From: an uncultured virus (IMG/VR IMGVR_UViG_3300013121_000030)
Lineage: Duplodnaviria > Heunggongvirae > Uroviricota > Caudoviricetes
DNA length: 64,000 nucleotides
Direction: 5' to 3' (one strand)
Virus record (IMG/VR): IMGVR_UViG_3300013121_000030
Location: 32,001-96,000 of that record
The position numbers were made by a program, and so were the translations under genes. Numbering within the stretch: position 1 is the stretch's first letter; the number at the start of each line of letters is the position of its first letter. Positions 1 through 27,410 of this stretch are shown here, in pieces. The notes under the pieces were generated by a model, which was not told the DNA's origin, made no database searches, and saw only the letters and a program-made list of their open reading frames with translations.

Positions 1-444
1 GCCCCAAAGTTGACCATTGACGAAGATCTTCCAGGTGTTGATACCTGACTTCTGGCTCTCTTTTGAGGCGTAAGTGAACCTCACGCCATAATTGCCAGAC
101 ATGACCAGTTTCCTAAACTCTAGTGCTGCGATCCCCTTTTCCGTGATTTTCCACCAGTCACCGAGGGAAGAAAACCCGGGAGAAGTGTGTTCCCAGGCCA
201 CGAGACCTTCCTTCGCCATCTTCTCATACAATCTCTCAAAAAAAGCATTGTTTGCAGTTGGGCCAAAACGCCGATCCCCTTGAGGCTTCAGCAGGTCCTT
301 CAGGAGTAGCTCTTCGTCTTCCGAGATAGTCTTTGGAACGGGATTAGGCCCAGGTTCCTGCGCCATTCCAGGAGGCCGGCGTGGTGAGAAGTTCAGGCCA
401 GCGGCGAGTCTTTTGAGGCTTGAACGAAGTTGTTTTGGGGTCAT
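1..444 (-). CDS. Hypothetical protein, partial (runs off the window start)
   Basis: Manually translated open frame MTPKQLRSSLKRLAAG...KIFVNGQLWG with no stop before base 1; alternative ATG at 468; absent from the ORF track because it has no stop. Confidence 0.6.
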   Translation of the reverse strand, partial: MTPKQLRSSLKRLAAGLNFSPRRPPGMAQEPGPNPVPKTISEDEELLLKDLLKPQGDRRFGPTANNAFFERLYEKMAKEGLVAWEHTSPGFSSLGDWWKITEKGIAALEFRKLVMSGNYGVRFTYASKESQKSGINTWKIFVNGQLWG

Positions 445-509
445 GCGAGGTTCCTGGGCATAGTCCATTCACCGTCAATGTGCCTTGTGGGTGGGGTATG
501 AGGCATACC

Positions 510-1775
510 ATGTCTAAAAAGTCGAGCAAGCCCCCCAAACCAAAAATCTACTGGAAGATTCGGTTGTCTCAACTTGGGGATGCTGTGATCGAAGTTGCAT
601 CTTGGACCCAGACTGCACTCCCCCTAGCTCTCAATCCAAAGGTGGCAACGGGGCTTGGGTTTCTCACAGGGATTCTCACCCTTCGGAAGAGGACTCTTGG
701 AACAAATCATCCTTCCAAGGTCCTGGAAGGGTGGTCTGAAGTTCTTGAGGATTTCCCCAACACTGAGGTTGTTAAGAAGATCCTTCGGCTGGCGGATGGG
801 GTGCATGTCCAGGGAAAAGGTTTCTCTGACCGGGATCCGTGGGCAGCAGGAAGTGCATCCTTTACGCTGCGGCACACCACGTTTCAGCACGAGACAATTA
901 ACATCCTCGAAGTCGCGCATGGGGGCCAGGGGAATCAGGTCCACACCATTTATACAGACCAACCCATTCTCTTCAAAGAATGGTTCTCGGAGAAGTTCTG
1001 GGAGGCTTACTCTCCAGCCAAGATTTGTTATGAGGATCTGTATTTTCGGCCTCGGACTCTGGACGTCGGGAAAGAAAAGGAGGTGGATCCTGAGTTCCCA
1101 ATGCCCGCGTACTGCAAACCTCTCATTGAAGATATCAAGCAGGCACATTCCGTGGGGAAAACTAGGAACCTAGTTTTCACGGGTCCTCCAGGGATTGGCA
1201 AATCTACCATGGTCCGTCAGATTGCCTGTCAGGTTGGGGCTTCGCGGATCCTCAGTATGAGTGGAAGTGGCTGGAATGTGATCTCTGCTCTGGTAACGGT
1301 GGCGGAGATGCTGAAGCCCCAGGTCCTGATCATAGATGATTTGGATGCCATGGGGGCATTTGGAGCCAACTCACTGGGATTCTTCGAGTCTCGGAAATTC
1401 CCTCTGATCATGGCGACCATCAACGACCCGAAGAAATTTGGGGACGCAGATCAGATTGGGGCGTTCTTTCGTTGTGGACGTTTCGACCGATTCCTCCGTG
1501 TTGAATCCTCGCATCTTGGGGAGATCCAAGACTTTTTACGCCGACGAATCCCGTTCTCGGACCAGGTTGAGATTCCTGAACTACCCCCCGCTTATCTCCA
1601 AGAAATCGTCAACCTGTCACGGACTGCCGGCACGCCCCAAGATGTAGAATCCGCCGTCAGAATCGTCCGAGAGCACTACGATTTTCTTCAAAGCATCCAA
1701 TCAGGGGCCGCAAAGAAGGATGGGGGGTCCGCCGCCGCGGTTGCGGATCCCGACATTGCGGAGGCAAAGGAGTAG
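510..1775 (+). CDS. AAA+ ATPase
   Basis: Walker A GPPGIGKS, Walker B LIIDD, sensor ATIND, arginine-finger-like RCGRFD; start taken at ATG 510. Confidence 0.8.
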   Translation: MSKKSSKPPKPKIYWKIRLSQLGDAVIEVASWTQTALPLALNPKVATGLGFLTGILTLRKRTLGTNHPSKVLEGWSEVLEDFPNTEVVKKILRLADGVHVQGKGFSDRDPWAAGSASFTLRHTTFQHETINILEVAHGGQGNQVHTIYTDQPILFKEWFSEKFWEAYSPAKICYEDLYFRPRTLDVGKEKEVDPEFPMPAYCKPLIEDIKQAHSVGKTRNLVFTGPPGIGKSTMVRQIACQVGASRILSMSGSGWNVISALVTVAEMLKPQVLIIDDLDAMGAFGANSLGFFESRKFPLIMATINDPKKFGDADQIGAFFRCGRFDRFLRVESSHLGEIQDFLRRRIPFSDQVEIPELPPAYLQEIVNLSRTAGTPQDVESAVRIVREHYDFLQSIQSGAAKKDGGSAAAVADPDIAEAKE

Positions 1776-9533: not shown

Positions 9534-10169
9534 ATGGAACCTGTACAGATCTCCTGCCTGGAGGCGGTGTACTTCAAATCTCTCTCTCGACAATTTAAAA
9601 AGGGGGATTCCTTCTGGGTGAGCCCAGAGGTCGCCGCAGGCCCAGAGATGGTAAGCCTCGCCAGGAACAGGAAGATTCGCATTTACCCATCCAAGGACAG
9701 TCCCATGCCTCCGTCAAAAGAAATCCGCATCCCAGCTGTTGGAATGTCGCTTCGAGGACCAAATCTCAAGCTTCCTCCCCTCCAGCCTTCTCCCACTCCC
9801 CAGCCTTCTCCCACTCCCCAGCCTTCTCCTTTGGCTTCAAGACCAACCGAACCTGTGGGGACGGCAGAGATTCTACGGGGAATGTCAAGGATCGAAGAGA
9901 AGCTGGGAAGTCTCAGCTCCATTGAAGAGCGCCTGCGCAGCCTTGAAGAGAAGCCTGTTACGTTGACTGCGCCTCTCCAGGAAGGGAAGAGTTTGGCTGA
10001 AAAGCCTCCAGTCGAGAAGACCACCAAGAGCATCCTGGATCAGGAGTTCGTGCCTTCTATGGTGGAGGTACAAGGGGAGGTCAATGTCGAGGTTCCGAGT
10101 TCAGAGGCCTCAGGTGTTGGTGAGGCCATGAAGAGTCTTCGGAGGCTGCGAGCTGAGAAGAAAGGGTGA
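9534..10169 (+). CDS. Pro-rich/coiled-coil hypothetical protein upstream of the actin-fold gene
   Basis: PSPTPQ repeats; SRIEEKL/SSIEERL coiled coil; adjoins the next gene. Confidence 0.55.
   Translation: MEPVQISCLEAVYFKSLSRQFKKGDSFWVSPEVAAGPEMVSLARNRKIRIYPSKDSPMPPSKEIRIPAVGMSLRGPNLKLPPLQPSPTPQPSPTPQPSPLASRPTEPVGTAEILRGMSRIEEKLGSLSSIEERLRSLEEKPVTLTAPLQEGKSLAEKPPVEKTTKSILDQEFVPSMVEVQGEVNVEVPSSEASGVGEAMKSLRRLRAEKKG
9782..9829 (+). repeat. 18-bp coding tandem repeat (~2.7 copies) encoding QPSPTP
   Basis: ccagccttctcccactcc repeated in tandem. Confidence 0.85.
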
Positions 10170-10174
10170 GGAAG

Positions 10175-11173
10175 ATGTCTGGAGTTGGAATCGATCTTGG
10201 AACCATGAACATTGTCGCCGCACGGAGTGTGGATGACAAGATTTCAACCAAGCGAATTAGGGATGCTTTCATTGATCTCCCCTTGGGGTCTGAACGCATG
10301 CTGAAGCTCGCCAAAGTGAGCCACATCCGTAGGGATGATGCTCTCTTGATTGTGGGAGACGCTGCCTATGACATGGCAAACATGTTGGCGAAGGAAGTAC
10401 GTCGACCTCTTCAGGGAGGACTTGTTTCGTCGGGAGAGTTGGATGCCCTGAGTGTCTTGGCAATCTTGGTCCGCGAGGTCTTGGGGGCCCCCGCAGTCCC
10501 CAATGAGATTTGCCGATTCTCCGTCCCGGCCGCTCCTGTGGATGCTCCAAACCAGGATGTCGTCTACCATCGCCGGGTCCTGGAGAAGATTGTCGGCGAC
10601 TGCGGATATCGCGCCATGGCCTCTAACGAAGCCTTGGCGATCGTATTCTCTGATTGTGCGGACAGCAGCTTTTCTGGGATTACGATGAGTTTTGGGTCTG
10701 GGATGACGAATGTTTGTCTTGCGCTCCACACCTTGGAAGCAATGTCTTTCTCGGTGGCAGTGGGCGGAGACTACATCGATGCCAAGTCAGCCCAGCAGCT
10801 TGGATCCCAAATGACTCGTTCGAGAATCTGCTCCCTGAAAGAGAAAGGGATTGATTTGCGGTCCCCTCGTACTCGGGAGGAGCAGGTTTTGGAGTGTTAC
10901 TACCGAAACCTCATCGAGCACGTCTTCGAGAAAATGATTGAGGAGTTTGACCGTCAGCGTGGGAAGATTGCCGCACCATTCCCAATTCCGCTGGTGGTAT
11001 CGGGTGGCACCTCCAAGGCTGGAGGATTCTTGGAGCTGTTCAAAGAGATTTTTGAAAAGAGGAAGGGTCGCTTCCCAGTTGAGATCTCTGAGGTAAGACC
11101 TGCCAAGGATCCTCTAAATGCAGTTGCCATGGGTCTTTTGATCCAAGCCATGCAAGATTCTGAAGAGGATTAG
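10175..11173 (+). CDS. Actin-fold ATPase (MreB/ParM/FtsA/Alp-like)
   Basis: Phosphate-1 GIDLGT, connect-1 NEALA, phosphate-2 SFGSGMT, GGDYID, adenosine VSGGTS, connect-2 PLNAVAMG; SD GAGGA. Confidence 0.85.
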   Translation: MSGVGIDLGTMNIVAARSVDDKISTKRIRDAFIDLPLGSERMLKLAKVSHIRRDDALLIVGDAAYDMANMLAKEVRRPLQGGLVSSGELDALSVLAILVREVLGAPAVPNEICRFSVPAAPVDAPNQDVVYHRRVLEKIVGDCGYRAMASNEALAIVFSDCADSSFSGITMSFGSGMTNVCLALHTLEAMSFSVAVGGDYIDAKSAQQLGSQMTRSRICSLKEKGIDLRSPRTREEQVLECYYRNLIEHVFEKMIEEFDRQRGKIAAPFPIPLVVSGGTSKAGGFLELFKEIFEKRKGRFPVEISEVRPAKDPLNAVAMGLLIQAMQDSEED

Positions 11174-11179
11174 GATCCC

Positions 11180-12421
11180 ATGTACTACTTTCTCACGGAA
11201 GCAGTCCAAAGACTTTTCACGAGTGAGCTACGGAGGTTCTGGCAGTACCACCCGGAATACCAGGGCATCGTGGACAAGATCATTGGGAAGTATTCCTTCC
11301 GTGAACGTCCTCAAATGGGGATCATTGTTAAGAACAGCTCGGGGAACATGGTTGGGTTGTCCGGCGACAACTTCCAGGGGACTGTGATGTCCTATGTCTA
11401 TCTAGCCCATGTGGATGGGAAGTTGGGGATGAGTGTGGAGTGGGTTCGGGAGAACTACCGGGCGATCCAGGCAAATCAGGGATTCTTCCCTTCTCCTCCT
11501 GGTATCTACTATTTGGACTTCTGCGATGAGAATGGAACACCCACGGACACGAGTTTTTATGTAGATCCTCTCTTGGATGTGGCGGGGGAGTCAGTCTTGA
11601 CAGTCGACCCCACGCATGGACAGCTTCAGAATCCTTTTGTGGCCGGGACACTTAGGCTCTGGAAAATGCCCGGAGATGTTCCACTAGTGCCTTCTCAGTT
11701 CACAGCTGACCCAACGACGGGATCGATCACGCTTCACACGGCGTTGGAGGGGGACGAGTTTTTGTCTGCGGACTACCGCTACCCAGGAGAAACCACGGGG
11801 CCCTGGGCTGTTCAGCCTGGGAGGGCTCTGATTGAACCCATTCCAGGGGCTGTGTTGGCCTTTGGGAGGAGGATTTGGCCTGGGGACCGCCTTGCTGTGG
11901 TAGTGCAGTCCTCTCGCCAACTTGCTGCTTTGGAGTACGGCGGGCGGTGGGAATTGGGGCTGGATTTTGATGTGATTGCGCGGGATGTGAATGCGCAGCG
12001 AGAGATTTTGGATCTCTCCACGATGTACCTCTGGTCAGTAGTTCGTCCTCGGCTCAGTTCCATGGGAATTGAGATCATGAATGTGTCTCTTGGGGGAGAG
12101 TCTGAAGAAGCCTACGATGAGAATGCGGACGACTACTTCTACACAGGATCATTTTCAATCCAGATCCAGACGGATTGGTCGGTCCAGGTTCCGCTGGGGA
12201 TTGTGATCCAACGGGTGGATACGGTCCCCCCCAATGCAGAAGGAGGACCAGCCACACCTCCACAATATCTCTCAAAGTATGGCCTCTCTGATGACCAGAT
12301 CAGTCAGGCGATGCTCCAGTTCCAGGTCGTCGAGGGAATGGGCCTCAACCCATTTGATCCTTTCTTCACAGGGAAGATCGGAAACCTGGGCCGCATGGGC
12401 ACAGGAGAGAAGCTCTTGTAA
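11180..12421 (+). CDS. Putative tail terminator/neck protein
   Basis: Located just before the sheath gene; beta-rich insertion; C-terminal DFDVIARD...SIQIQTDW resembles tail-terminator folds. Confidence 0.45.
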   Translation: MYYFLTEAVQRLFTSELRRFWQYHPEYQGIVDKIIGKYSFRERPQMGIIVKNSSGNMVGLSGDNFQGTVMSYVYLAHVDGKLGMSVEWVRENYRAIQANQGFFPSPPGIYYLDFCDENGTPTDTSFYVDPLLDVAGESVLTVDPTHGQLQNPFVAGTLRLWKMPGDVPLVPSQFTADPTTGSITLHTALEGDEFLSADYRYPGETTGPWAVQPGRALIEPIPGAVLAFGRRIWPGDRLAVVVQSSRQLAALEYGGRWELGLDFDVIARDVNAQREILDLSTMYLWSVVRPRLSSMGIEIMNVSLGGESEEAYDENADDYFYTGSFSIQIQTDWSVQVPLGIVIQRVDTVPPNAEGGPATPPQYLSKYGLSDDQISQAMLQFQVVEGMGLNPFDPFFTGKIGNLGRMGTGEKLL

Positions 12422-12852
12422 TGCCGGTATTTGTGTTCCAATGTGAGTCTTGTGGCCTCTCTTTTGAGAAGCTCACCTCTGCAACAAGAGCGGAATGCAA
12501 GAAATGCAAGAGCCCCTGTGAGAGAATTATGCAGAGTCAGGGGGGGATCACCTCTGGGCATGTCCCAGACATGCCCGCACCCCAGAATTCAGGGGCGAGT
12601 CTTGTGGACCACGAGGTGGACTGGGTGATCGCCACTGAGTCCAGGATGCGGCTTCACGAGATGCAGTTGCGCCAAGACTTCAAACGGCGAAAGGCAGAGC
12701 AGGCGAAGGTTTCTGGGCATTACCTGTCCCGCCTCTCAGACGGCGATTATTTTGTGATGACGGAGGATGAGCGGCAGGCGGCCAAACGGGCGAGAGTCCT
12801 TCACCAGGATGCTATTGACGAGATCAACCGAATCTCACGTCGTAAGCAATAA
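12421..12852 (+). CDS. FmdB-like zinc-ribbon protein
   Basis: MPVFVFQCESCG...CKKCKSPCERIM pattern. Confidence 0.7.
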   Translation: MPVFVFQCESCGLSFEKLTSATRAECKKCKSPCERIMQSQGGITSGHVPDMPAPQNSGASLVDHEVDWVIATESRMRLHEMQLRQDFKRRKAEQAKVSGHYLSRLSDGDYFVMTEDERQAAKRARVLHQDAIDEINRISRRKQ

Positions 12853-12896: not shown

Positions 12897-15800
12897 ATGC
12901 CTTTTTTCGGGACTGCCTACCAACCAGCAGGCGTATATGTTCGGACTCTTTACGACAATCCGACTCCATCTGTTTTGTCGAACGTCCGAATCCCCGTCTT
13001 TGTTGGTACGGGCAATGAGATTCTTACGCGGTTCGACCTTGAGCTGATCCGCGGATCTAGCTCCTTTAGCTCCCAGTTTGTCCCTGATGAGGACATGACG
13101 GGACGGTCGGTGGTCACGATTACCACAGCTGGCCAAGTCATCTTGGGGGACTTCAACGGGGAGCGCAGGCGGGTTCAGGTCCGGAATTACCCGATTGTTG
13201 ACCCGACGACCAATGAGCTGGTCGTCGACCCCAGCTCGATTTCCGTCCTCATCAATGGTCGACCCGATGTGGTTTTGGGTGTCGCAGATGCCAACCTTGG
13301 TGTCATTGAGATCAGCACAGCACCTGAACTGAATGACGAGGTGTTGGTCAGCTACAACTTCAAGCGTACCGACACCCAAATCACAGACGATGTGTCGGAG
13401 CAGGTATCCCCACTTCCTGCTTCTCTGGCGGGGGCTCAGGGGGATTCTTTTGTCTTCACAACAACTACAAATATCTTCCGGTTTCGGGTGGACGACGACC
13501 AGAATCAGGAGATCACGGTCAATCTGGGGACGGGCACAAAAAACCCTGCCACTGTGGTGAGCTTGATCAATGGTGCGGCAGCCTCCACATCCTTGGTGGC
13601 TTCGACCTTCACCAACAACTACGGGAAAGTAGCCATCCTCCTCTCGGCTGAGAGGGACATTGAAATCCTGGAGGGTTCTGCCAACCCCATTTTGGGATTC
13701 ACGACAGGCCAGCGCACCAACCGCAAGAAGACATTCTATGTCTTCAACGGGCCTATTGTCGACGGCTCTAATGGTGGGGTGACGACAACGGACGTCACCA
13801 AGGTTGAGGTTCGCGTCGATGGGATTTTGACAACGGCATCTGCGGTCGATGGGCAAAATAGGGCTGTAACCTTGTCCTTCGCTCCTGAGGTAGGGAGCGA
13901 GGTCAAGATCACCTACTACTTCAATGCCTGGCAGGATACCTTTGACTTCTTGCCGAACACCAACGTCACGGCGATCCTTCGGTGTGGCATTATCCCTGGC
14001 AACTCAGATTTTGTTCAAGGAGTAGACTACGTCCTTCAAGACAACCACGTTGTTTGGGGGACTGCTGCACTTATCTCAGCGGGCGTGGTGGCACCTTCTT
14101 CGGCTGCCTTGGGTCCAACCACACTGGGGGCATCCAGCCAGATCACAGCCACTCTTGTGGATAATCGGTGGTATTTGGCGGAAGCTCCTCCAGTCGTAAA
14201 CTCGACTGTTTCCCCCCCTGTGGAGTCCAGGACTCAGTTCACACTTCCTGTCCAGCCGACGACTGGGAACGGGCGAGACTTCCCGTTGGGGGCTGAGGTC
14301 TTTGAGAGCATCTCCAACAACCGTATTGACCTCCCCACCAACAACCCCAACCTGGTCCAGGCGTACTGGGGATTTGACCTCCAAGATGCCTTTAATCGGG
14401 GAGCAGTCGAGGTTTTGGAGGTTGATGGGACCACGATCACCCTGAAGAATGCAGTCCCAGTTGGGGCCCAAGTTTGGGCGACGTTCTACTACAACATTCT
14501 TGTTGATAACGAGTACACCCTCAAGGTTCAGACCCCAGGTCCCAGCGGGATTGGCACCTACTTCATCTTCGACAAGAACGAAAACCCCATCTACAACCCA
14601 CTTTTGGGCACCAAGGGACCAGCCCTCACGGGAATCACACTGGTGTTTCCGTCAGGTTCTGAGTTGCTCCCAGACGCGCATTTCGAGGGAGGAACAGGGG
14701 GACCCGTTGAAGAGACAGTGACGGTCTCCTTGGCAGAGAAGGATGCCACACTTGCCAAGTTCTCCTTTGATGGATCTGGGCCATACTCCTTTATCTCTGG
14801 AGCCTCTGATCGTGCCTATCTTCAAATCGATAGCGCACTCCTGGCAGGTGGAGCCGCTGGAATTTCTCTTTCGGCCCCCATGGGAATTTCAGGGCTTGGG
14901 TTCTCAGCATCCCTCTTGGGAGAGGAGATTGAGTACAGCATTGACTCAGGTCTGACCACCTACGACATCCTCCAAGGCATCAACGACAACGTGTCGATGA
15001 CACTGGATGGGATTACGATCACAACGGTCGTCCCCGAACAGTTGGGGGTGGATGCTTCTGCCTATGTTGAGGCTTTGAATGCTGTAGCCAAGACCTCCAG
15101 CTTTGCGCCTTCCTATGTCGCGCAGACACGGTTTGTGGGGACCACAACGATCACTGCGGGTGTTTATGACACCTTTACGATGTACTACACGGGTGTGACC
15201 AACGGGGCTTCGGGTCCCCTCCAGATCACAATCCCCCCAGGAAACTATGTCGCTCCGTCGTTCTTGGCCACGGCGGTTCAGAACGCGGTCAACACTGCTG
15301 TGGCGGCCTTGCCAGTCCAATTCGAGGGGTTGGCCATTGGGGTGGAGGCCAACTACAACGGCCAGTTGGCATTCTCTCTGGTCGCTGCGGACAGCGACAC
15401 AGGAACCTTCGCTTCCGGAACGATAACTTCCAGTGGGGCCCTCCTCGGAGACACCATCTCAATTGGTGGAATTACTCTGACTGGTGCGCTGGACTACACA
15501 GCTGGAGGCCTAAACTTCGACACTGGGCAGGCCTCCGCCACCATTCTGGCCAATGGTGTCCGGCCAGGGGATACTTTCACCATCGATGTTGGGGGCGGAC
15601 CAATCACCATCACCGCTTCTGGCTCCCAGACCCCGGGGGGTTTGGACTTCAACGAGGGTGTTCAGGCCACAGGGACCATCACAGTTGCAGGCCCCATTCC
15701 TGGGGATACCGTAACGGTGGCGGGAATCACGCTGACAGCTTCGGGTTCTCAGACTCCGGCAGGATTGGACTTTGACGAAGGAACTCGCGCTTCAGGAACT

Positions 15801-18800
15801 GCGACGCTTTCGGGGGTCCTTTATGGGGACACGATCACGATTGCGGGAGTGACGCTCACAGCGAGCAACACTTTGACTCCTGGAGGGCTCGACTTCAACG
15901 TCGGCCAAGCTGCCTCAGGAAGCATCAAGTGCGTCGGGATTCAGCCTGGCGACACCGTGACGCTCAATGGAACTGCGTTGACGGCTGCTGGGGCTCAAAT
16001 TCCAGGTGCTTACAACTTCAACGAAGGAGTTCAGGCCACTGGAACGATCACAACCTCCGCCGTTCTGACAGGTGACCAAGTGGCCATTGGTGGGATCACC
16101 CTCACCGCGGCTGGCGCTCAGACTCCGGGTGGCCTCAACTTCAACGAGGGCACCAAGGCGACGGGATCCTTCACGGTCACCACCTTCCCGACAACTGCTT
16201 CTCTCACCATTGGTGTCAACGTGTTGGCGCCCGCGGGTGGGCCGAGGACTCCAGGTGGGGATGATTACGACAACACCTTGGGTTCGGCCGCTGCAATTGC
16301 GGCCGACATCAATGCCGCTCTCAACGATCCCCTGAATAGCTTTGCGGGAACCACAACTTCTTCCGTTGTGGGCACCACAGTCAACCTGACTGCGGTTGTC
16401 CCCGGAGCTGTGGGTAACGCCATCGTTACCTCGTCCACAGACGGCACCATTACCGCAGCAGCAGCGACGTTGTTGGGTGGTGTGGGTGACGATAACACCG
16501 TTGCCGCATCGATTGCGGCCGCCATCAACGACGCTCTGAACGGCTTGAATGGGACAGCCTCTGCCACGGCGCTTCTCAATGTCGTCACGGTGACTGCGGT
16601 AACTCCGGGGTCGGCTGGGAACTCTATCCCCCTCACCACAACAACCCCGATTCGGTTGGCAATTTCAGCTGCCACTCTTTTGGGTGGCGTTGGAACCAAC
16701 AACACCGTTGCAGCCAGCTTGGCTGCTGCAATCAACGATGCTCTAAATATCCCATTGCCGACAACCTTCTCGGCAACGGCTATTGGAGATACTGTTTTCC
16801 TCACGGCGGTGGTTCCGGGGGCTGCTGGAAACCTCCTTACGCTCGCAACCACTGCTCCAGGAAGGGCCCAACTCTCTGGGCCTCTCATGACGGGAGGTTC
16901 AGGGACCAACATTACAGCAGCTTCGAGCCTTGTGTCGGCGATTTTGGATCCTGCCAACGGTTTGGTGGGGACTGTCATCGCAGACAATGGCGCTGGCACC
17001 CTGAACATTGTGACGATTGAGGCTTATACGCCAGGGTCAGGAGGCAACGCCATTATTCTGGCGTCCTCAACCCTGGTTCGGATCCTCCTGTCTGGAGGCA
17101 CACTGGCAGGAGGCGTTGGGGACAACACAACGGTCGCAGCATCAATCGCGGCGGCCATCAATGATGCTGGAAACGGCATCGTTGTCACAGCCACGGCCGT
17201 CGCCGCACTCAATGTGGTGACGGTTACGGCGGTCACTCCAGGAAATATTGGAAACCTGATCACGCTGGCTACCAGCAACAGCACCAGGCTTCTGGCAAAC
17301 GGGGCGACACTGTCGGGGGGGATCGGGACGAACTTCACCGTTGCATCCTCGATCGCGGCGGCCATCAATGACGCTGGAAACGGATTGGCTGTGGCAATCG
17401 CCGCCAACAATGATGGGGGGTTGTCCGCCACAGTCACCGTCTGGGCACTCACACCAGGGCTCGTTGGCAACACCTACACCCTCGCGTCCTCGAATCCTGT
17501 CCGGCTGGCCATCTCTGGGGGATTCTTTGTGGGTGGTGCAACAACCACCCAGGTCGCCAGCAGCATCGTCCAGGCAATCAATGATGTTCTGAACGGGCTG
17601 ACAACGTTGGTGGAGGCTGACAATAGCGCGGGCACCTCCAACATCATTACGGTAACGGCAGCCGATCCTGGGTCTCAAGGGAACTACATCAGTCTCGCCA
17701 GCTCGACTGGGGTACGTCTCCCAGTCTCCGGAGCATTCCTGACGGGAGGCTCCAATCTGGGCGGCGGATATTTGGAGTTCTTGGATGCCCCCACCATTAC
17801 TTCGGACTTCTCCATTCTTGCGGGAATTTCGACGGACTCGTTGCCGGGCCTGTCTCAAACCAAGCTGCTGAACTGCGATATTGCACGTCGCTTCACGGTT
17901 GCGGGAACTTCAGGACGGTTGATCTACGACCGGATCATCTTGAGGAACCGCATCGTCCCAGGATCGGGCTCGATCACCTACCATTCTCAGCTTTCGCAAA
18001 CTGAACTTGTCATCCAGGGCACTAACGCCCAGTCCTTCACAGGACTGGTTCCCAAAGCAGCTGGGTTGGCAGGCTTTGCTGCGACAGTTCAACCTGCCTC
18101 GATGTTCGGCGAGGTTGGTTTCAAGGACGGGCAAATCGCGGTTGGGACCTATGGTGATGCTCGGGATGGGATGCCAGCGGTTCGGTTCTATGCGCAGGGA
18201 GGCGTCAATCCCCAGAACAACGTTGTGAAGATCAACATTGACGGAAAGCCGTTCACGGTGGTCTTCACGAATGCCTCCGGAGCTGCAATTCCTTCGGGAA
18301 GCTCTGCACTGGTTCCACTTGGTCCTGTATCCATTGCGAACACTGTCCTACACCAAATCCAAACTGCAGCTTCTGCGGCAGGACTTGGGACGGTGATCTT
18401 CCAAGAGGGGGCAGGGATCCGTTACGTTTCGCTGTTGGACACAGCAGACTCCCAGATCACGATTGGGACGGGAAATGGGAACTCGACTCTGGGGCTCGTT
18501 GCTGGGGCAACATCCACTCGGACCCTTGTGGAGCCAGAAGTTGTGGCCTCGGCACTCATGGCTCACCATGCGGGTTCGGTGGCGTCGGTCCTTTTGGACT
18601 ACCAGTCGCCCACGAACACTTACTTTGCAGCCCAAGCACTTGCAGGGGTGGTGAGGGATTCAACCAATGCGGAGTTCCTCTTCATCGAGTCTCAAGCCAA
18701 CAACGTCATTGGGTTGGGGCCATCCAGCAACATTTTGGTGCTGGATGCACTGACGTCCTCGTGGCTGCGTGTGGGCACGGGTTTGGATACTTCCTCTGGG

Positions 18801-20237
18801 GAGGGATCCGCAGGAGAGTCAGGGTACCAGGGATTCTACGTCACCTCTTCGGATTCTGTAGATGGATCCGGAACTGCGAACACTTCCGAATTCAACTTCG
18901 GGGTGGGCCAGGATGGTGTGGTTGGCCAGACTTACCGTGACGAAGTGACTGGGCTGGTCTTCACACTTCTTCCTCGTGAAGGGAACGCCTCGTACCCGAC
19001 TGGGGTTGGAGCCACCTTTACCTTTGAGGTTCGCAAGTTGGTGGCAACAGATGCGAACATCCCCATCAATGCCATCCCTGGGATCCAATTGTTGGTCACC
19101 AACACCACGGGAACAGCGACGGGGAATACTGCGGTTGTAGAGACGATCGAGAGGGGTGGAGCGGAGCCTGCGGTGGGGGATAGCTACTTTGTGAGCTACA
19201 ACTACCAGAAGGATCTGGATCGTGAGCCCTGGAGCATTGTGCAGTTGTACACATCTCTCCAGGCGGTCATCTCCAACTACGGATCAATCGACCCAGATCA
19301 TCCCCTGACGTTGGCATCCTATCTGTCCAATCTCAATGGGTCGCTGTTGTGGGGTGTGCGTCAAGTCCCCAAAGAACCCGGCTCCAACCAAGCGTCTGTT
19401 GAAGATTATTTGGCGGCGTTTGACTCGTTGTCCGGAATCTTGCCCAGCGGGTTGACTCTGGACACGATCACTCCTCTTCGGGGAGATAGTTTGGTCCTCT
19501 TCCAGGCCCTTCGGAAGCACTGTGATGTGCAGTCCAGCTTCAAGTTCAGGGCCGAACGGACAGGGATCATTGGGGTGTCCTCCGGAACCCAACCCACTCA
19601 GGTAGGGAATATCGCCAAGGCGATCGGGTCTGAGCGGATGCGCCTGGTCTACCCAGACATTGTGACCCTGATTTTGGAGGATGCGGTTGGGAACCAGAAG
19701 ACCTTCTTGGTGGATGGGACCTACATCGCTGCGGCGTGGGCAGGCAATCGTGCCTCCCCAAATATTGACGTTGCGACTCCATGGATTGGGCGCACGAGCC
19801 TGATGTTCGGGTTTGATCGTCTGGCGCGTTCTCTGAATGACATCCAGAAGAATACGGTTGCCACCCAGGGTGTGGTGGTCTTCGAGCAAAAGGGATCCGC
19901 GATTCAGGTCCGGGACGCCTTTACGACCGACATGTCAACAATCTTGACACGTCTCCCAACGATTCGGACTATTGGGGATGAGGTTCAGAGAACGACACGA
20001 CGGGATCTGGAAAGGTTCATCGGAATCAAGTTCTTGTCTGGGATCCTCTCCGAGATCACAGGCCAGATAACGACGACCCTGAAGACCCTGAAGCGAGAAG
20101 AGATCATCTCGAACTTTACAGGTGTGGCAGCCAATGTTTCGAGTGAGGCAACAACGGTGGAGGCTCAAGCAGCCTACCAGCCGGTGTTCCCACTGAAGTA
20201 CATTCTGGTCACCTACAACCTTCGGAGCCGTCTCTAG
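12897..20237 (+). CDS. Contractile tail sheath protein, giant (2446 aa), with inserted domains
   Basis: SD GAGGAG; N-terminal YQPAGVY; sheath-like C-terminus (RLVYPD, RDAFTT, YQPVFPLKYILVTY); followed by the tube gene. Confidence 0.85.
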   Translation: MPFFGTAYQPAGVYVRTLYDNPTPSVLSNVRIPVFVGTGNEILTRFDLELIRGSSSFSSQFVPDEDMTGRSVVTITTAGQVILGDFNGERRRVQVRNYPIVDPTTNELVVDPSSISVLINGRPDVVLGVADANLGVIEISTAPELNDEVLVSYNFKRTDTQITDDVSEQVSPLPASLAGAQGDSFVFTTTTNIFRFRVDDDQNQEITVNLGTGTKNPATVVSLINGAAASTSLVASTFTNNYGKVAILLSAERDIEILEGSANPILGFTTGQRTNRKKTFYVFNGPIVDGSNGGVTTTDVTKVEVRVDGILTTASAVDGQNRAVTLSFAPEVGSEVKITYYFNAWQDTFDFLPNTNVTAILRCGIIPGNSDFVQGVDYVLQDNHVVWGTAALISAGVVAPSSAALGPTTLGASSQITATLVDNRWYLAEAPPVVNSTVSPPVESRTQFTLPVQPTTGNGRDFPLGAEVFESISNNRIDLPTNNPNLVQAYWGFDLQDAFNRGAVEVLEVDGTTITLKNAVPVGAQVWATFYYNILVDNEYTLKVQTPGPSGIGTYFIFDKNENPIYNPLLGTKGPALTGITLVFPSGSELLPDAHFEGGTGGPVEETVTVSLAEKDATLAKFSFDGSGPYSFISGASDRAYLQIDSALLAGGAAGISLSAPMGISGLGFSASLLGEEIEYSIDSGLTTYDILQGINDNVSMTLDGITITTVVPEQLGVDASAYVEALNAVAKTSSFAPSYVAQTRFVGTTTITAGVYDTFTMYYTGVTNGASGPLQITIPPGNYVAPSFLATAVQNAVNTAVAALPVQFEGLAIGVEANYNGQLAFSLVAADSDTGTFASGTITSSGALLGDTISIGGITLTGALDYTAGGLNFDTGQASATILANGVRPGDTFTIDVGGGPITITASGSQTPGGLDFNEGVQATGTITVAGPIPGDTVTVAGITLTASGSQTPAGLDFDEGTRASGTATLSGVLYGDTITIAGVTLTASNTLTPGGLDFNVGQAASGSIKCVGIQPGDTVTLNGTALTAAGAQIPGAYNFNEGVQATGTITTSAVLTGDQVAIGGITLTAAGAQTPGGLNFNEGTKATGSFTVTTFPTTASLTIGVNVLAPAGGPRTPGGDDYDNTLGSAAAIAADINAALNDPLNSFAGTTTSSVVGTTVNLTAVVPGAVGNAIVTSSTDGTITAAAATLLGGVGDDNTVAASIAAAINDALNGLNGTASATALLNVVTVTAVTPGSAGNSIPLTTTTPIRLAISAATLLGGVGTNNTVAASLAAAINDALNIPLPTTFSATAIGDTVFLTAVVPGAAGNLLTLATTAPGRAQLSGPLMTGGSGTNITAASSLVSAILDPANGLVGTVIADNGAGTLNIVTIEAYTPGSGGNAIILASSTLVRILLSGGTLAGGVGDNTTVAASIAAAINDAGNGIVVTATAVAALNVVTVTAVTPGNIGNLITLATSNSTRLLANGATLSGGIGTNFTVASSIAAAINDAGNGLAVAIAANNDGGLSATVTVWALTPGLVGNTYTLASSNPVRLAISGGFFVGGATTTQVASSIVQAINDVLNGLTTLVEADNSAGTSNIITVTAADPGSQGNYISLASSTGVRLPVSGAFLTGGSNLGGGYLEFLDAPTITSDFSILAGISTDSLPGLSQTKLLNCDIARRFTVAGTSGRLIYDRIILRNRIVPGSGSITYHSQLSQTELVIQGTNAQSFTGLVPKAAGLAGFAATVQPASMFGEVGFKDGQIAVGTYGDARDGMPAVRFYAQGGVNPQNNVVKINIDGKPFTVVFTNASGAAIPSGSSALVPLGPVSIANTVLHQIQTAASAAGLGTVIFQEGAGIRYVSLLDTADSQITIGTGNGNSTLGLVAGATSTRTLVEPEVVASALMAHHAGSVASVLLDYQSPTNTYFAAQALAGVVRDSTNAEFLFIESQANNVIGLGPSSNILVLDALTSSWLRVGTGLDTSSGEGSAGESGYQGFYVTSSDSVDGSGTANTSEFNFGVGQDGVVGQTYRDEVTGLVFTLLPREGNASYPTGVGATFTFEVRKLVATDANIPINAIPGIQLLVTNTTGTATGNTAVVETIERGGAEPAVGDSYFVSYNYQKDLDREPWSIVQLYTSLQAVISNYGSIDPDHPLTLASYLSNLNGSLLWGVRQVPKEPGSNQASVEDYLAAFDSLSGILPSGLTLDTITPLRGDSLVLFQALRKHCDVQSSFKFRAERTGIIGVSSGTQPTQVGNIAKAIGSERMRLVYPDIVTLILEDAVGNQKTFLVDGTYIAAAWAGNRASPNIDVATPWIGRTSLMFGFDRLARSLNDIQKNTVATQGVVVFEQKGSAIQVRDAFTTDMSTILTRLPTIRTIGDEVQRTTRRDLERFIGIKFLSGILSEITGQITTTLKTLKREEIISNFTGVAANVSSEATTVEAQAAYQPVFPLKYILVTYNLRSRL
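15402..17750 (+). repeat. Seven N-half plus seven C-half protein repeats inside the sheath
   Basis: 7 x (A.GTIT...GDT.TI.G.TLT...GGL.F..G) followed by 7 x (.VA.SIAAAIND...VTVTA..PG..GN...L.GG). Confidence 0.85.
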
Positions 20238-20247
20238 GAGAGAAGTC

Positions 20248-21039
20248 ATGGCGAACCAAGACAGAAATGCGCAAAATGGAATCCAAGGTTCCAGCTACCT
20301 CTACGACTATGGGACGACCGCCAACACTCGCACCGCAGTCTCCCAGAAGGTACGGATCCTCACTCCCATGTATGGATCGAATGCCAACATCCTCCTTCAG
20401 ATCGGGGTTCTGAGTTCTTTCAGTCCATCTGAGTCCAAGAATGTTGAGCCTGTTCGGGGGATTGGCTTCGGAGACCAAATCGCCGAGTTGGTCCCAAGCG
20501 TCACAGAGCCCATGGCAGCAGATATGGAACGGGCCTTCCTGTACCTCTCAAACTTGTGGCAAGCCACAGGTTACGCTGGAGGCATTGATGGGCCTGTGCG
20601 GTCTCTGCGCCACCATCGGTGGCCCTTCGACATTGAAATGCAACTTGTGTTTTCAACCCTGTCTGATGCAGACCTTACAGGCCAGGGTGGGGTGGGGTAC
20701 ACAGGTCCCTCGGGTACCTTCACAGGAGGGACCAAAGAGATCGTCTACCCAGAGGTGACCAACGATCTTAGCGGTCGACCAGGAGCCCTTCGTGGACACT
20801 CGGCTATCATCACGCTCTATGAGGCGTGCTGGTTTACGAGCTACTCCATCTCGAACATCAACAAGGACTCAGGAATGCTCATGGAGACCGGAAACGTTAT
20901 GATTTCGGATGTCCACGACTTCAACTCAGAGTACGGGGAGTTCTTGGCAACCGGGAACGACCCTCTGGCAGGACAGCTTGGATCTGTTAGGTTCAACTTC
21001 GGCAGCCAGAAGGGCGGGACGCCCTTCATCAACGTCTAA
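20248..21039 (+). CDS. Tail tube protein
   Basis: Directly after the sheath; SD GGAGA; VRGIGFG...ELVPS, PFDI, YEACWFTSYS typical of myovirus tube proteins. Confidence 0.75.
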   Translation: MANQDRNAQNGIQGSSYLYDYGTTANTRTAVSQKVRILTPMYGSNANILLQIGVLSSFSPSESKNVEPVRGIGFGDQIAELVPSVTEPMAADMERAFLYLSNLWQATGYAGGIDGPVRSLRHHRWPFDIEMQLVFSTLSDADLTGQGGVGYTGPSGTFTGGTKEIVYPEVTNDLSGRPGALRGHSAIITLYEACWFTSYSISNINKDSGMLMETGNVMISDVHDFNSEYGEFLATGNDPLAGQLGSVRFNFGSQKGGTPFINV

Positions 21040-22913: not shown

Positions 22914-24869
22914 ATGGGACGAAAAAATGAAGGTAATGGTCTAGCTCTCTCCCGAATTGCTCTCAAGGCGAGTCGCAAGTCTGAGGTGGCCCCACAGGCA
23001 CCGCCTATGAGCAGCTCCTCGGCCCCCGAAATCCCCCAGCTGGGGAAGATGGACATCATCGAGTTCGTGGAGTCGGCTTGGGGACTGGGTGTGAAGTTGT
23101 TCCCCGTGCAGAGGGTTGTATTGAAGGCCCACTACGGGATCCCGCTGGACGACACTCTCAAATTTGAGATAACTGACTGGAGACGTGAGAACAAGAGGTA
23201 CTTCACAGAGAAGACCTACTTGGAATATCTGTTCGACACAGGGCGAAGCAACATTCGGGAGGTCGTCCCAGGGAAAGAGCTGCGCAACATGGTGTTGGCG
23301 TTTGGCCGGAGGTCTGGAAAGACCTCAATCAGCGCTTGCATTGTGGCCTATGAGGTTTATCGTCTTATCCACACCTACAATCCTCAAAAGTATTACGGGG
23401 TGGTCCCTACCAACCCCATCAACCTAATCTCGATCGCTACTTCCAAGGACCAGGCTGGTCACTTGTTCCAGGAGGCATCCGGGCACTTTGCCAAGTGTGG
23501 GTTTTTCAAGCGCTACATGGCCCGCGATACTATGACGGCGATTTGGTTCCAGAGCCCCGCGGAAATCGAAAAGTATGGGATGTACTCGGACAATCCCAGG
23601 GCACGGGCTACTATTCGGGTGAAATTTGAGCCCTGCAACGCCAAGGGTCTTCGTGGCGCTGGTAACTACGTGGTCATCCTGGACGAGGTGGCCCACTTCG
23701 TGGAAGTTGGTTCCAAATCGGCTGAGGATGTGTTCAATGCCGTATATCCGTCCACGGCAGCGTACTCCCCCAAGGACGAGAACAAAAAGGCGCTCAGGGA
23801 CCAGTCGGACGCCCGAGTCATTATGATCTCTAGCCCATTGGGAAAAAAGGGTCTCTTCTGGGACCACTTCCGCCGGGGGATGGAGGGGGCGGACAACATG
23901 CTCTGCATTCAAGCTCCAACGTGGGAGGTAAACCCAACGGTCGCGGCAGGGGTGTTTATTGATGCGCACTCCGTGGACCCACGCCAGTTCGATGTGGAGT
24001 ACGGCGCGGAGTTCTCGGAGCGGACCCTCGGATTCTTTGAAGAGGCCAAGGATGTTACAGACTGCATCGACCCGACCTTGCGGCCCAAGCTTCTTGGTGT
24101 TTCAGGTCGCCGCTACTTTATGGGCTTCGACTTGGGCCTCGTCGTGGACGCCTCAGCCATGGCGATTGTTCATTTGGAGGACGGCCGCATTGTGACGGAC
24201 TTCGTGGACCAGATCAAGGCAGGGGAAGGGGAATACCGAGATCGCAAACGCCTTGAGTTTGATGATGTGGCGGACTGGATCCACGAGCAGAGCCGAAAGT
24301 TTGCGATTGTGGAGGGGATTTTCGACCAGTGGGGAGGCATTCCTTTGGAGCAGGCTCTTGTCAAGAAGGGGCTCACCCAGATCAAGACGGAGCATATGAC
24401 TGGGCAGAGAAACTCTGAGATCTACCAAAATCTCAAAGCCATGATCTTCGATCGTCGACTGGTGCTTTTTGACCTCAACGAAGAGGACAGGCGTCGTCAT
24501 CATCAGGAGACGGGCAAGCCTGCTCCCGAACATGCTCCCTACATCATGCAGCTTTTGGGACTTCAGGCGGAGTACAAATCGAAGTACGTTATCAACGTTG
24601 AGGCCCCCAAGGGTCAAGGGAAACATGACGATTTGGCAGACGCCTTGGCACGGGCTGTGTGGTTGGCTTCTCAGGCGATGGGGAAGGCATCGTACATTGC
24701 AGGGGCACGGTCTTCAACGCCAATCTCGAATGGCTATACGCCGAACCATATGGACATGGTAAAGGCACGCCTCCAAGGCCGATTGGGGGGGTCCCATCCC
24801 ATGAGGATGAATCCAACCCGAAACCCTGGGCTCTTCAATCTCTATGTCAAAAAGTATTCTTCCAAGTGA
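22914..24869 (+). CDS. terL: Terminase large subunit
   Basis: LFPVQ, Walker A GRRSGKT, Walker B VILDE, coupling motif ISSP, RNase H-like nuclease GFDLG and HDDLADA. Confidence 0.92.
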   Translation: MGRKNEGNGLALSRIALKASRKSEVAPQAPPMSSSSAPEIPQLGKMDIIEFVESAWGLGVKLFPVQRVVLKAHYGIPLDDTLKFEITDWRRENKRYFTEKTYLEYLFDTGRSNIREVVPGKELRNMVLAFGRRSGKTSISACIVAYEVYRLIHTYNPQKYYGVVPTNPINLISIATSKDQAGHLFQEASGHFAKCGFFKRYMARDTMTAIWFQSPAEIEKYGMYSDNPRARATIRVKFEPCNAKGLRGAGNYVVILDEVAHFVEVGSKSAEDVFNAVYPSTAAYSPKDENKKALRDQSDARVIMISSPLGKKGLFWDHFRRGMEGADNMLCIQAPTWEVNPTVAAGVFIDAHSVDPRQFDVEYGAEFSERTLGFFEEAKDVTDCIDPTLRPKLLGVSGRRYFMGFDLGLVVDASAMAIVHLEDGRIVTDFVDQIKAGEGEYRDRKRLEFDDVADWIHEQSRKFAIVEGIFDQWGGIPLEQALVKKGLTQIKTEHMTGQRNSEIYQNLKAMIFDRRLVLFDLNEEDRRRHHQETGKPAPEHAPYIMQLLGLQAEYKSKYVINVEAPKGQGKHDDLADALARAVWLASQAMGKASYIAGARSSTPISNGYTPNHMDMVKARLQGRLGGSHPMRMNPTRNPGLFNLYVKKYSSK

Positions 24870-25092: not shown

Positions 25093-25526
25093 TCTCACCT
25101 ACCCTTGAACGAATTTCGGTTCCCTATAGAGAGGCCGTTGACCGAATAAATCGGGAGTTTGGGGCTGAGCTTGCCTCAAAGAGAACCAGGGTAGAGGACC
25201 TCCTGGGCTCTGTTGATGAGCAAGAACTTCGACGAGCCCTTGAGAAAGTGGGGATAGATGGTCATCGCCAACGTCTATTCCAGTTAGCTTTTCGACTTCG
25301 GTCGGAGGCTCTGAATCGTCAAAAATTGGCATCCGTCGTGGGTTCTGTGAACCCCCACCTGAGGACTGTCAGTCATACCCTTGAGTCCATCCTCCGAGAG
25401 GTTTCTGCGGTATCTGTCCCACCAGGGACAGTCGAAAGCCAAAAGAAGAAAAAGATCCTGCGTCACCTCCAGGGGATGATGGACGGATGCAGAGCCCTAA
25501 AGAAGGAAGTCCATGGCGCAGTCTAA
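25083..25526 (+). CDS. Hypothetical helical protein
   Basis: Overlaps its neighbours in the head operon. Confidence 0.55.
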   Translation: MAMISPTLERISVPYREAVDRINREFGAELASKRTRVEDLLGSVDEQELRRALEKVGIDGHRQRLFQLAFRLRSEALNRQKLASVVGSVNPHLRTVSHTLESILREVSAVSVPPGTVESQKKKKILRHLQGMMDGCRALKKEVHGAV

Positions 25527-27378
25527 AAAAAGAACGCAGAGGCGCTCGCCTGTTGTTGCTGGTGGCCAAACACCTGCATCGAAGTCTTCCAACGAAGATA
25601 TGAGGGTCGTCGCTGAGGTGCCGCCAAAAAAGAGGGACCTGTATATTGGTGTCCCCACGTTTGCCCCTCGGCCCCCCACCCGAAAGATCGCAACTCTCCG
25701 AGAGAAAGTTGCAGCTTCTTGTGGGCCAGGAACAGGATCTTTTGGTGGAACCGGGGGAGTTTCTGTTGGAGGAGGCGGCGGTGGTTATGGTGGAGGATAT
25801 GGGAATCTAGGTGGGACAGTCACTCAGTCGAGTGGGGGGAATTTTTATTCTCCAGAGCTTTCCACGGACTTCCTTCAGCTTCCACAGAGCCTAATTGAGC
25901 AGTGGAACTTCTACCGATTCTTTTACTACAACCACCCATTGGTGGGGAGGGCACTGGATACGCATGTCCAGCTCCCACTTTCCAAGATCCGCCTGAGCCG
26001 TCCTGTCTGCAAGAACAAGGAATTGGGGGAAGAAGCTCTCCGGTTTTGTTTGAAGTGGGTGCGCAAGGTTGAGCTTTCTGAACGTCTCGCGGAAATTGTC
26101 TTCAATTTCTTCCTGATTGGGGAGGTCTTCATCTTCTGCGAAGACACCAACCCTGAGATGCCCGAGGAAGTCTCAAAGAGGGTGGTGACGAAGGTTCAGG
26201 AGGATGGGACCGTTACCTCCGAGTGGGAGGAGTACCCAAACGCGGATGATAGGATAACTTCGTGGATGAGGAAGAACTACAAGGGATGGACCAAGATCAG
26301 AGTGCTCCCTCCCGAACAAGTCCACATTGAGACCTTCCCGTTCACGGATGAAGTTTTGATTGAGATCATCCCTGACGCGAAGACCAAGTTCCTCATCGAA
26401 CAGGCCGACTCAGGGGACCCTAACGCGATTAGGGTTATGGAATCCATGGATGATTCGGTGATTGCGGCGGTTCGGGGAGGGAAGAATATTTCCCTGAACA
26501 CAGACCCCAACGCAGGTTCGTTTGTCTACTACATGAGCAACAAGCCCTCCCAGTATGAGCCTCGGGGGCACAGCATTCTTCAGCGGTGTCTTAGGACACT
26601 TGTCTATTCAGACATGCTCCGACAAGCCCAAAATCAGATTGCTTCTCGGCACATGACACCTGTGCGTCTGGTTTATGCGGAGGACATGAACGAGCAGCAA
26701 GTGGAGGAACTCAGATTCCAAGTTGACTTGGCGCTCCAAGACCCTGACTACTCCATCGTCACTAACTTCCAGGTTACATGGGAGGAGATGAACTCCAATG
26801 GTCGCCTCCTCGAACTTTCGGGAGAGTACGACATCATTGCTCGGGAGCTGTACGCTGGTTTAGGGGTCACAGAGTCCCTCCTCTCAGGGGAATCCTCCTA
26901 CGCGGGGGACCGAATCAACCTGGAGGTTTTGAATACCAGGTACATGGCCTTGCGGGACAAGGTTCAGAGCCTCGTGGAAAAGCACTTCCTGGAGCCCATG
27001 TGTAGGCGCATGGGGTTTGTGGAGGAGGACGAGGACGGGGACTTGGTGACTGTATTTCCCAGGTTCTCGTTCACACGGCTGGCCTTGCGGGACCACCAAG
27101 AGATTTTCGATGCCCTCATGCAGCTCTACAACAAGGGATCCTTGGATGTTGAGACCATCTATGAGGTCCTGAACCTGGACACCCAGACCATCAATGAGCG
27201 CCTCCAACGCGATTTTGGCTCTCTGGCAGATGCTTCATTCAATGATCTGGTTCGTGGTCTCTACGGTGAAGTGGGTCGTGCCTTGGCAGAGAGGACAGAC
27301 TTCACCAAGAAAGTGGCCGCACTTTTGAACCTCAAGTACACAGAGCCACCTCCTGAGGGAGGCGACAGGTTCGGGTGA
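25513..27378 (+). CDS. Portal protein
   Basis: Follows terL; FFYYNHPLVGRALD, YEPRGHSILQRC, LYAGLGVTESLLSG helical portal-like motifs; basic and Gly-rich N-terminus. Confidence 0.8.
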   Translation: MAQSKKRTQRRSPVVAGGQTPASKSSNEDMRVVAEVPPKKRDLYIGVPTFAPRPPTRKIATLREKVAASCGPGTGSFGGTGGVSVGGGGGGYGGGYGNLGGTVTQSSGGNFYSPELSTDFLQLPQSLIEQWNFYRFFYYNHPLVGRALDTHVQLPLSKIRLSRPVCKNKELGEEALRFCLKWVRKVELSERLAEIVFNFFLIGEVFIFCEDTNPEMPEEVSKRVVTKVQEDGTVTSEWEEYPNADDRITSWMRKNYKGWTKIRVLPPEQVHIETFPFTDEVLIEIIPDAKTKFLIEQADSGDPNAIRVMESMDDSVIAAVRGGKNISLNTDPNAGSFVYYMSNKPSQYEPRGHSILQRCLRTLVYSDMLRQAQNQIASRHMTPVRLVYAEDMNEQQVEELRFQVDLALQDPDYSIVTNFQVTWEEMNSNGRLLELSGEYDIIARELYAGLGVTESLLSGESSYAGDRINLEVLNTRYMALRDKVQSLVEKHFLEPMCRRMGFVEEDEDGDLVTVFPRFSFTRLALRDHQEIFDALMQLYNKGSLDVETIYEVLNLDTQTINERLQRDFGSLADASFNDLVRGLYGEVGRALAERTDFTKKVAALLNLKYTEPPPEGGDRFG

Positions 27379-27410
27379 AGCCTTGATATCTTGGACTCAT
27401 CGAGGACGCA

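Follow-up and report, generated by a model that had tools for sequence, protein, structure and literature searches.

A predicted seven-level self-nested domain array in the tail sheath protein of an uncultured jumbo phage

The window analyzed in this study is a stretch of 64,000 nucleotides (positions 32,001 to 96,000) from the record of an uncultured virus, IMGVR_UViG_3300013121_000030. It contains an open frame at 12897..20237 (+) that encodes a predicted tail sheath protein of 2446 amino acids (aa), P0001, in which seven consecutive units of one type are followed by seven units of a second type. The question raised by this locus is whether the two blocks are separate repeat structures or the two halves of seven domains inserted one within another, and what such an arrangement would do on a phage tail. 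The first-pass annotation of this DNA, made from the letters alone, had proposed nesting. Structure models, covariation and the comparison of homologues show an out-and-back chain with seven complete domains, all of which spring from a single site on the outside of the sheath subunit. Positions are those of the window unless stated otherwise.

Mirror pairing of the N and C units

The array occupies nucleotides 15405-17759, where aa 837-1126 form seven units of ~41 aa (N units) and aa 1127-1621 form seven units of ~70 aa (C units), with the sole N|C junction at 16274/16275 (residue 1126/1127). When profile hidden Markov models (HMMs) were made from the units, they detected exactly seven N and seven C units and nothing comparable elsewhere in the protein, with E-values of 3e-13 to 9e-22 for N and 4e-23 to 2e-27 for C. 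The counts of seven and seven, the span of 15402-17750 and the meeting of the two types only at the centre (~16280) that had been reported earlier are thus borne out. The accompanying claim of two different unit types stands as far as the N and C profiles are distinct, although the two are not wholly unrelated in sequence pattern since MAFFT lays the N unit over the beta half of the C unit. At the DNA level, the first half has a period of 123 nt and the second half one of 207-213 nt, with 60-83% identity, and Tandem Repeats Finder reported no array in the gene as the units are too diverged. The units of this array are old repeats. Alanine, glycine and threonine make up 46% of the array, lysine, glutamate, histidine, cysteine, methionine and tryptophan are almost absent, and the isoelectric point is ~4.

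The whole array was found inside one beta-hairpin of a host outer domain. The N-terminal part of this domain (aa 740-836; 15114..15404, +) ends in the strand 'QLAFSLVAADSDTG' and its C-terminal part (aa 1622-1661; 17760..17879, +) opens with the strand 'GYLEFLD'. Both N and C units are absent from the 1665-aa homologue of the uncultured phage LR745208 (485 kb; 44% identity), in which the two host strands are directly joined ('...TQAAGDASGVLEFIVGG...'). Because an insert in a hairpin starts and ends at one place, the two ends of the array are adjacent and an out-and-back path is required by topology alone.

An AlphaFold2 (AF2) model of aa 740-1661 was built with 44 sequences (P0001 and 43 homologues) and its topology was read from structural alignments (VIA-align). 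The mean predicted local distance difference test score (pLDDT) of the model is 88.8 and its predicted template modelling score (pTM) is 0.51. Single PDB domains of 60-110 residues align on seven ranges of the model, each running exactly from the start of N_i to the end of C_(8-i) for i from 1 to 7, and the split host domain itself covers model range 1..922. The pairing of N1 with C7, N2 with C6 and so on, for which the first-pass annotation had suggested an AlphaFold check, is therefore seen in the model at all seven levels.

From the outermost domain inwards, the paired halves (all on the + strand) are as follows. Domain 1 is predicted to join N1 (aa 837-877; 15405..15527; HMM E 7.5e-17) to C7 (aa 1551-1621; 17547..17759; E 1e-25) over model range 97..881, with ESMFold2 contacts of 103/104 with 844/845. 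For domain 2, the outgoing half is N2 (aa 878-921; 15528..15659; E 2e-18) and the returning half is C6 (aa 1480-1550; 17334..17546; E 6e-24), with model ranges 138..807 and 140..809 and contacts of 139-146 with 773-778 (ESMFold2). Domain 3 would consist of N3 (aa 922-962; 15660..15782; E 9e-22) and C5 (aa 1411-1479; 17127..17333; E 2e-26) over model range 181..723, where 184-189 contact 702-706 (ESMFold2). N4 (aa 963-1003; 15783..15905) and C4 (aa 1339-1410; 16911..17126; E 2e-24) are the putative halves of domain 4 (model range 224..669), and N5 (aa 1004-1044; 15906..16028) and C3 (aa 1269-1338; 16701..16910; E 9e-24) are those of domain 5 (model range 265..597). Domain 6 would be formed by N6 (aa 1045-1085; 16029..16151; E 2e-20) with C2 (aa 1200-1268; 16494..16700; E 2e-27), with model ranges 305..527 and 307..525. 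The innermost and distal domain 7 (model range 346..454) would combine N7 (aa 1086-1126; 16152..16274), a divergent unit without the GDT motif, and C1 (aa 1127-1199, with the HMM start at 1127/1132; 16275..16493; E 4e-23).

The same pairing was obtained when N1-N3 and C5-C7 were given to ESMFold2 as separate chains. The interaction prediction score from aligned errors (ipSAE) had a median of 0.88 over three runs, and the best of three controls scored 0.00. In the calibration, 58 of the 80 solved complexes and 2 of the 110 mismatched pairs attained this mark, these counts being approximate as our own alignment was used. The runs show at least 99% contact agreement with partner pLDDT of at least 95, and all of the 25 contacts with the least error fall on N1-C7, N2-C6 or N3-C5. 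In the controls without the partner, the pLDDT is ~33 for N1-N3 and 55 for C5-C7, so that neither half is a domain by itself in these models. Independent folding of the N and C units, which the earlier annotation had named as the outcome that would overturn its proposal, is thus contradicted by the mirror-only contacts and by the poor models of the halves alone. No solved complex resembling the N-C pair was found by sequence, with a profile of N6N7C1C2 giving only chance-level matches against the PDB, and it is therefore unlikely that the predictor was recalling a known structure.

Evidence that does not depend on a structure predictor points the same way. In 44 orthologues, pairwise distances were computed for each unit, the mean over all units (the shared tree) was regressed out and the residuals were correlated. 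The mirror pairing ranks first among the 5040 N-C permutations with a summed correlation of 2.32 (mirror pair correlations, in the order given, of 0.23, 0.40, 0.64, 0.07, 0.34, 0.34 and 0.30, with 0.64 for N3-C5). The mirror map also brings the similarity matrices of the N units and of the C units into agreement (r 0.78, rank 36 of 5040), and all the top permutations retain N7-C1 and N5-C3. A parallel pairing of N_i with C_i was tried and rejected, as its covariation sum is -1.05 and its unit-similarity correlation is -0.01. Conservation is mirrored on both arms as well, with a mean pairwise identity of 0.61-0.72 for the proximal units and 0.54-0.60 for the distal units.

In the predicted structures, N_i and C_(8-i) form one compact domain that encloses the inner ones, and covariation gives independent support. 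On these grounds, it is very probable that the array represents seven self-nested domains, each of them made of one N and one C unit taken in mirror order.

Relatives and the balance of N and C counts

All of the 45 full-length proteins, which consist of P0001, its own database entry P0002 and 43 homologues (P0003-P0045), have the N7C7 arrangement at array identities of 45-100%. The equality of N and C counts in homologues, which had been put forward earlier as a check on nesting, thus holds in this set, and equal counts were also found in other proteins carrying NNCC, NNNCCC or NNNNCCCC.

An exhaustive profile search with the contiguous N6N7C1C2 block identified at least 695 proteins that carry the domain. 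A mixed alignment of N-only, C-only and spanning rows was considered as a broader search profile and dropped since MAFFT put N over the beta half of C. Among 150 representatives of the 695 proteins, 112 have balanced N/C strings at strict thresholds. The single domain (NC) is the most common with 71 occurrences, followed by NNCC (17), NCNC (14), NNNCCC (3), NCNCNC (3) and NNNNCCCC (2), with one occurrence each of NCNCNCNC and NNCNCC. Those unbalanced strings that were inspected by hand could be explained by units missed at the threshold or by tandem arrays whose N unit is short. About ten of the 38 unbalanced representatives are tandem arrays of ~99-aa period in which a 29-aa short N unit escapes the HMM, and alignment showed that the families of ~390 aa and ~500 aa are NNNCCC, NNNNCCCC, or an outer domain with its last strand after an inserted [NNCC][NC] block. 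Lenient gap-filling for the missed N units was rejected because it produced false N calls and lowered the balanced strings from 112 to 93 of the 150.

Several relatives show how the module can be placed and extended. P0046 (2042 aa) carries NNCC at its N-terminus. P0047 (521 aa; loci L003 and L004) is a free-standing colinear copy of levels 4-7 (N4-N7 and C1-C4) with 46% identity over 487 aa, which shows that such a block can stand alone as a module. Its contigs are phage-like, with adjoining ribonucleotide reductase and RecD-like helicase genes, and the contig context of P0047 and of P0151 is likewise phage-like with no clue to the role of either protein. Two metagenomic homologues belong to the same sheath family as P0001, with ~48% identity at both ends. 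One of them, P0163 (1750 aa), has a single NC domain after the host-domain helix, and in the other, P0055 (1993 aa), a tandem of three NC domains follows the last host strand. The insertion points in P0001, P0163 and P0055 differ, so that the module entered three loops of one host domain in separate lineages, extending by nesting in one of them and as a tandem array in another. The NCNCNC order at a neighbouring loop of P0055 also agrees with the earlier remark that tandem duplication would give alternating units.

A separate family comprising P0109, P0129, P0151, P0137 and their relatives (285, 394, 500 and 619 aa) has an N-terminal region of ~55 aa followed by nests of two, three and four (perhaps five) levels, with length steps of ~108 aa. 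The 'FDxG' strand stands before each C helix in this family and not at the end of the N unit, and the insertion point is therefore one strand off compared with the sheath. The genome that holds the window has two further copies outside it: a 532-aa open reading frame (ORF) at C1:145894-147489 (+) with a single N+C domain (N 176-218, C 222-289), and a 354-aa ORF at C1:163670-164731 (+) with a C unit at 137-207.

Neither the N and C units nor ten other proteins that carry the domain belong to a family in Pfam, PHROGs or NCBIfam, and the only library match to the units is a weak PHROG of unknown function at 1554-1628. By structure, the NC domain superposes over most of its length on the alpha/beta fold of sheath outer domains and FliD D2-D3, and is thus a member of that fold. 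Matches were found to the protruding domains of the A-1(L), PhiTE, Mu and Milano sheaths, and also to the T7 gp12 nozzle domain, T4 gp11, FliD D2-D3 and flagellin D2/D3. In its general pattern the host domain is alike, with matches to sheath domain 95-214 of E217, Pa193 and XM1. No RNA polymerase chain was found among the structural matches listed.

A broader reading, to which we give about an even chance, is that the NC unit is a previously unnamed and widespread phage surface domain, occurring in 695 or more protein clusters, that is intrinsically self-insertable at one or two loops. It would then generate balanced-bracket architectures (NC, NCNC, NNCC, NNCNCC and so on to N7C7) in which any central block is a portable, foldable module, and in the sheath it would act as a molecular ruler that sets a fixed stalk of ~20 nm per subunit. 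If this reading is true, the array together with the ordinary sheath domains beneath it would be the deepest natural domain nest known. The unannotated family and its rule of balanced N and C counts also matter for annotation, as pipelines and repeat finders misread the two halves as two unrelated repeats. For protein engineering, the nest offers a natural scaffold whose length should change in steps of ~110 aa as central blocks are added or removed.

The sheath gene and the role of the nest

The genome is a single contig of 234,244 bp (55% G+C) with phage hallmarks that include a large terminase, a Mu-like portal, an intein-bearing gene and a UvrD helicase. Its nearest cultured relative is Tunturi_5, a jumbo myovirus of Acidobacteriota (Tunturiibacter) with a contractile tail of 167 nm (PMC11924767). 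The array is absent from Tunturi_5, and no phage with N7C7 has been cultured. In tblastn searches, the annotated Tunturi_5 sheath gp326 is matched by P0001 over query residues 1-2443 (E 4e-44), and the 'tail sheath' proteins of the Gordonia phages Pupper and CherryTomatoes are matched with E 7e-6, so that homology to annotated sheaths extends across both termini. The termini are the best conserved parts of P0001 among its homologues, and its N-terminus aligns with P0055 from residue 1. A C-terminal sheath core region (aa ~2169-2442; 19401..20222, +) was recognized from three profiles. PHROG 10244 'tail sheath' matches the C-terminal third (E 2e-7), Pfam Phage_sheath_1C (PF17482) matches residues 2356-2442 with 20.5 bits (E 5e-4) under a cut-off of 26.9, and the phage 812 sheath 5li2_A is a weak match (E 0.012). 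A phmmer search of the PDB with the C-terminal sheath part found nothing. Taken together, these sequence matches are strong evidence that P0001 is the contractile-tail sheath of an uncultured jumbo phage.

The models, together with covariation and the comparison of architectures, show how the nest is built. The repeated element is an alpha/beta domain of ~110 aa, with a beta-hairpin and an 'FDxG' strand as its N half and a helix and a beta-meander as its C half. This domain has been opened at the N|C junction seven times, each time receiving another copy of itself. The chain accordingly leaves through N1 to N7, turns in the innermost N7+C1 domain and returns through C1 to C7, and the nest sits as an insertion in the beta-hairpin of the outermost ordinary sheath domain with its ends side by side. 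The unbranched nest suggests that the insertion loop lies opposite the domain termini, which would give a two-stranded string of beads and, at about 3 nm per domain, a stalk of ~20 nm. If the tail is like that of Tunturi 5, its roughly 40 discs with six subunits each would bear a few hundred of these bristles.

A seven-domain stalk on every subunit would probably give the tail a built-in bristle coat, and through its distal domains this coat would probably engage polymers of the host surface or the soil matrix by weak, multivalent contacts. The faster-evolving tip of the stalk and the precedent of immunoglobulin-like decorations point to this kind of adhesion, and a function as stalk and adhesin is plausible, in line with the adhesive or shielding coat that the first-pass annotation had suggested. 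The length of the stalk also appears to be under selection, as the 7+7 arrangement is invariant down to 45% identity, which would imply selection on length and against unbalanced intermediates. Overall, a nest produced by recursive self-insertion on the sheath, with a bristle-coat role, is likely to be the best explanation of the whole.

The main rival to adhesion is a lattice or cement role, in which the nesting is real and the seven domains lie along or wrap the sheath surface, touching neighbouring subunits as an outer lattice that cements a long tail or tunes its contraction. Outer sheath domains of other phages have been proposed to stabilize the discs through contacts with neighbours (PMC9230969, on phage 812), and both the exact conservation of seven levels, which suits a fixed lattice geometry, and the unusually uniform and uncharged array would fit this role. 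However, the distal domains evolve faster than the proximal ones, as is more typical of exposed tips, and homologous sheaths with 0, 1 or 3 NC domains at nearby loops indicate that the array is not needed for assembly. We therefore regard this role as a serious but unlikely alternative to the bristle coat.

Several observations weigh against a self-nested bristle on a sheath subunit. The structures are predictions only, and both predictors used the same alignment of 44 rows. The pTM of the AF2 model is compatible with an elongated or flexible object and proves nothing by itself, and the structural alignments for N4..C4 and N5..C3 have low Z-scores (4-5), their worth being only in the exact boundaries. 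Part of the 38 unbalanced representatives were resolved by hand, and a few NCC strings (P0061, P0074 and P0128) are unexplained. As regards adhesion, no recognizable binding motif occurs in the array, and charged and aromatic residues are very scarce. The sheath core fold is unconfirmed, since AF2 of the C-terminal 407 aa alone gives a pLDDT of 41, and the Pfam match is below its cut-off.

These last two points, along with the absence of any NCBIfam match and the modest PDB profile match, are what favours the reading that P0001 is another large virion protein, such as a fibre or a decoration, which shares sheath domains and carries the nest off the tail surface. Given the homology to annotated sheaths, this is quite improbable. 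Least probable of all is that the N and C arrays are independent repeat structures (e.g., a beta-solenoid followed by alpha/beta beads) numbering seven each by chance: the N unit does resemble the beta half of C, so that each type could form its own sheet, and some family members are unequal at strict thresholds, but the seven mirror ranges are single domains in the AF2 model, N1-3 rise from a pLDDT of ~33 alone to 95 with C5-7 with mirror-only contacts, the mirror permutation comes first in covariation, N and C units are equally numerous in 45 of 45 full-length proteins as well as in the NNCC, NNNCCC and NNNNCCCC proteins, and a chain inserted in a hairpin has to come back to where it began.

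The genes around P0001 include others of the virion. Downstream, the ORF at 20248-21039 is homologous to a Tunturi_5 'virion structural protein' that is encoded close to the sheath gene of that phage. Scans of the window with Pfam, PHROGs and NCBIfam recognized no tube or terminator family. Upstream, a 143-aa ORF (12421-12852, +) ends 44 nt before the sheath start and has an N-terminal zinc-ribbon match (PF09723) just under the cut-off. Two genes upstream of the sheath gene, within the phage neck/tail block, a 335-aa ORF (10166-11173, +) shows a full-length match to Pfam Volactin (PF25216; E 6.5e-69). Volactin is an actin-fold family that was first described in haloarchaea. The large terminase is located at 22914-24869, and at 25513-28307 (+) a Mu-like portal (weak Pfam match) is followed directly by a 2H/LigT-type phosphoesterase (PF13563; E 1.4e-8). 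A 969-aa ORF at 31107-34016 (+) with Hint/intein-splicing and LAGLIDADG matches is probably an intein within a late or head-module gene.

Comparison with known systems

Tail sheaths with extra domains formed by an outgoing and a returning chain have been described in T4 gp18, phage 812 and the 'type 3' multi-domain sheaths of jumbo phages (Evseev et al. 2022, PMC9230969). Known sheaths contain up to 'five and more' mostly unrelated domains, and the two-domain class measures 426-713 aa (PMC9230969). P0001, at 2446 aa, differs from these in that a single domain is self-nested seven levels deep and is carried in addition to the ordinary ones. Flagellin and FliD also have outer domains of the outgoing-plus-returning kind. 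Their outer domains (D2/D3) reach two to four levels and are generally not copies of each other, and the likeness to the NC domain is one of fold only.

The stalk of streptococcal antigen I/II offers a parallel of another kind, as its A repeats pair antiparallel with an equal number of P repeats. As is predicted for the sheath nest, a second repeat type occupies a later block with as many units as the first, and the two blocks form a long stalk. In contrast, antigen I/II consists of an alpha-helix wound with a polyproline helix and has a distinct tip domain, whereas the sheath nest is built from globular domains.

Whisker-like fibres occur along the tails of the 'hairy' jumbo phages CBB, phAPEC6 and Atu_ph07 (PMC5259590, PMC7247149, PMC6102473). 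The sheaths of these jumbo myoviruses are covered by projections, which resemble the stalks predicted here. The tail fibres of hairy phages are assumed to be separate proteins attached to the tail. In P0001, on the other hand, the predicted projection is part of the sheath polypeptide itself, and this would represent a new route to a 'hairy' tail in which the bristles are encoded in the sheath subunit.

Our literature search found no paper describing a seven-level self-nested sheath domain. The closest known case of recursion is the Si3 insertion in the beta' subunit of cyanobacterial RNA polymerase, where recursive insertion of hybrid-motif/HABAS domains gives 8-10 domains (PMC13114784, PMC11515920). 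A survey that covered 2.7 million domains presents this six-level branched nest as its most extreme example (PMC13114784). Both Si3 and the sheath nest arise from homologous small domains inserted recursively, and the two share this logic of recursion with no claim of membership. They differ in fold, protein and biology. Si3 is branched, with hosts that receive several inserts, whereas the sheath nest is strictly linear (N7C7), is at least one level deeper and is placed on the virion surface. It shows the reach of recursive domain insertion in that an unbranched nest of seven levels has stayed constant across a diverged phage clade. What is new here is therefore the seven homologous levels set on an ordinary sheath nest, the strict linearity, the setting on the virion surface and an unnamed domain family with a balanced grammar, and the sheath nest ranks among the deepest cases of recursive domain nesting on record.

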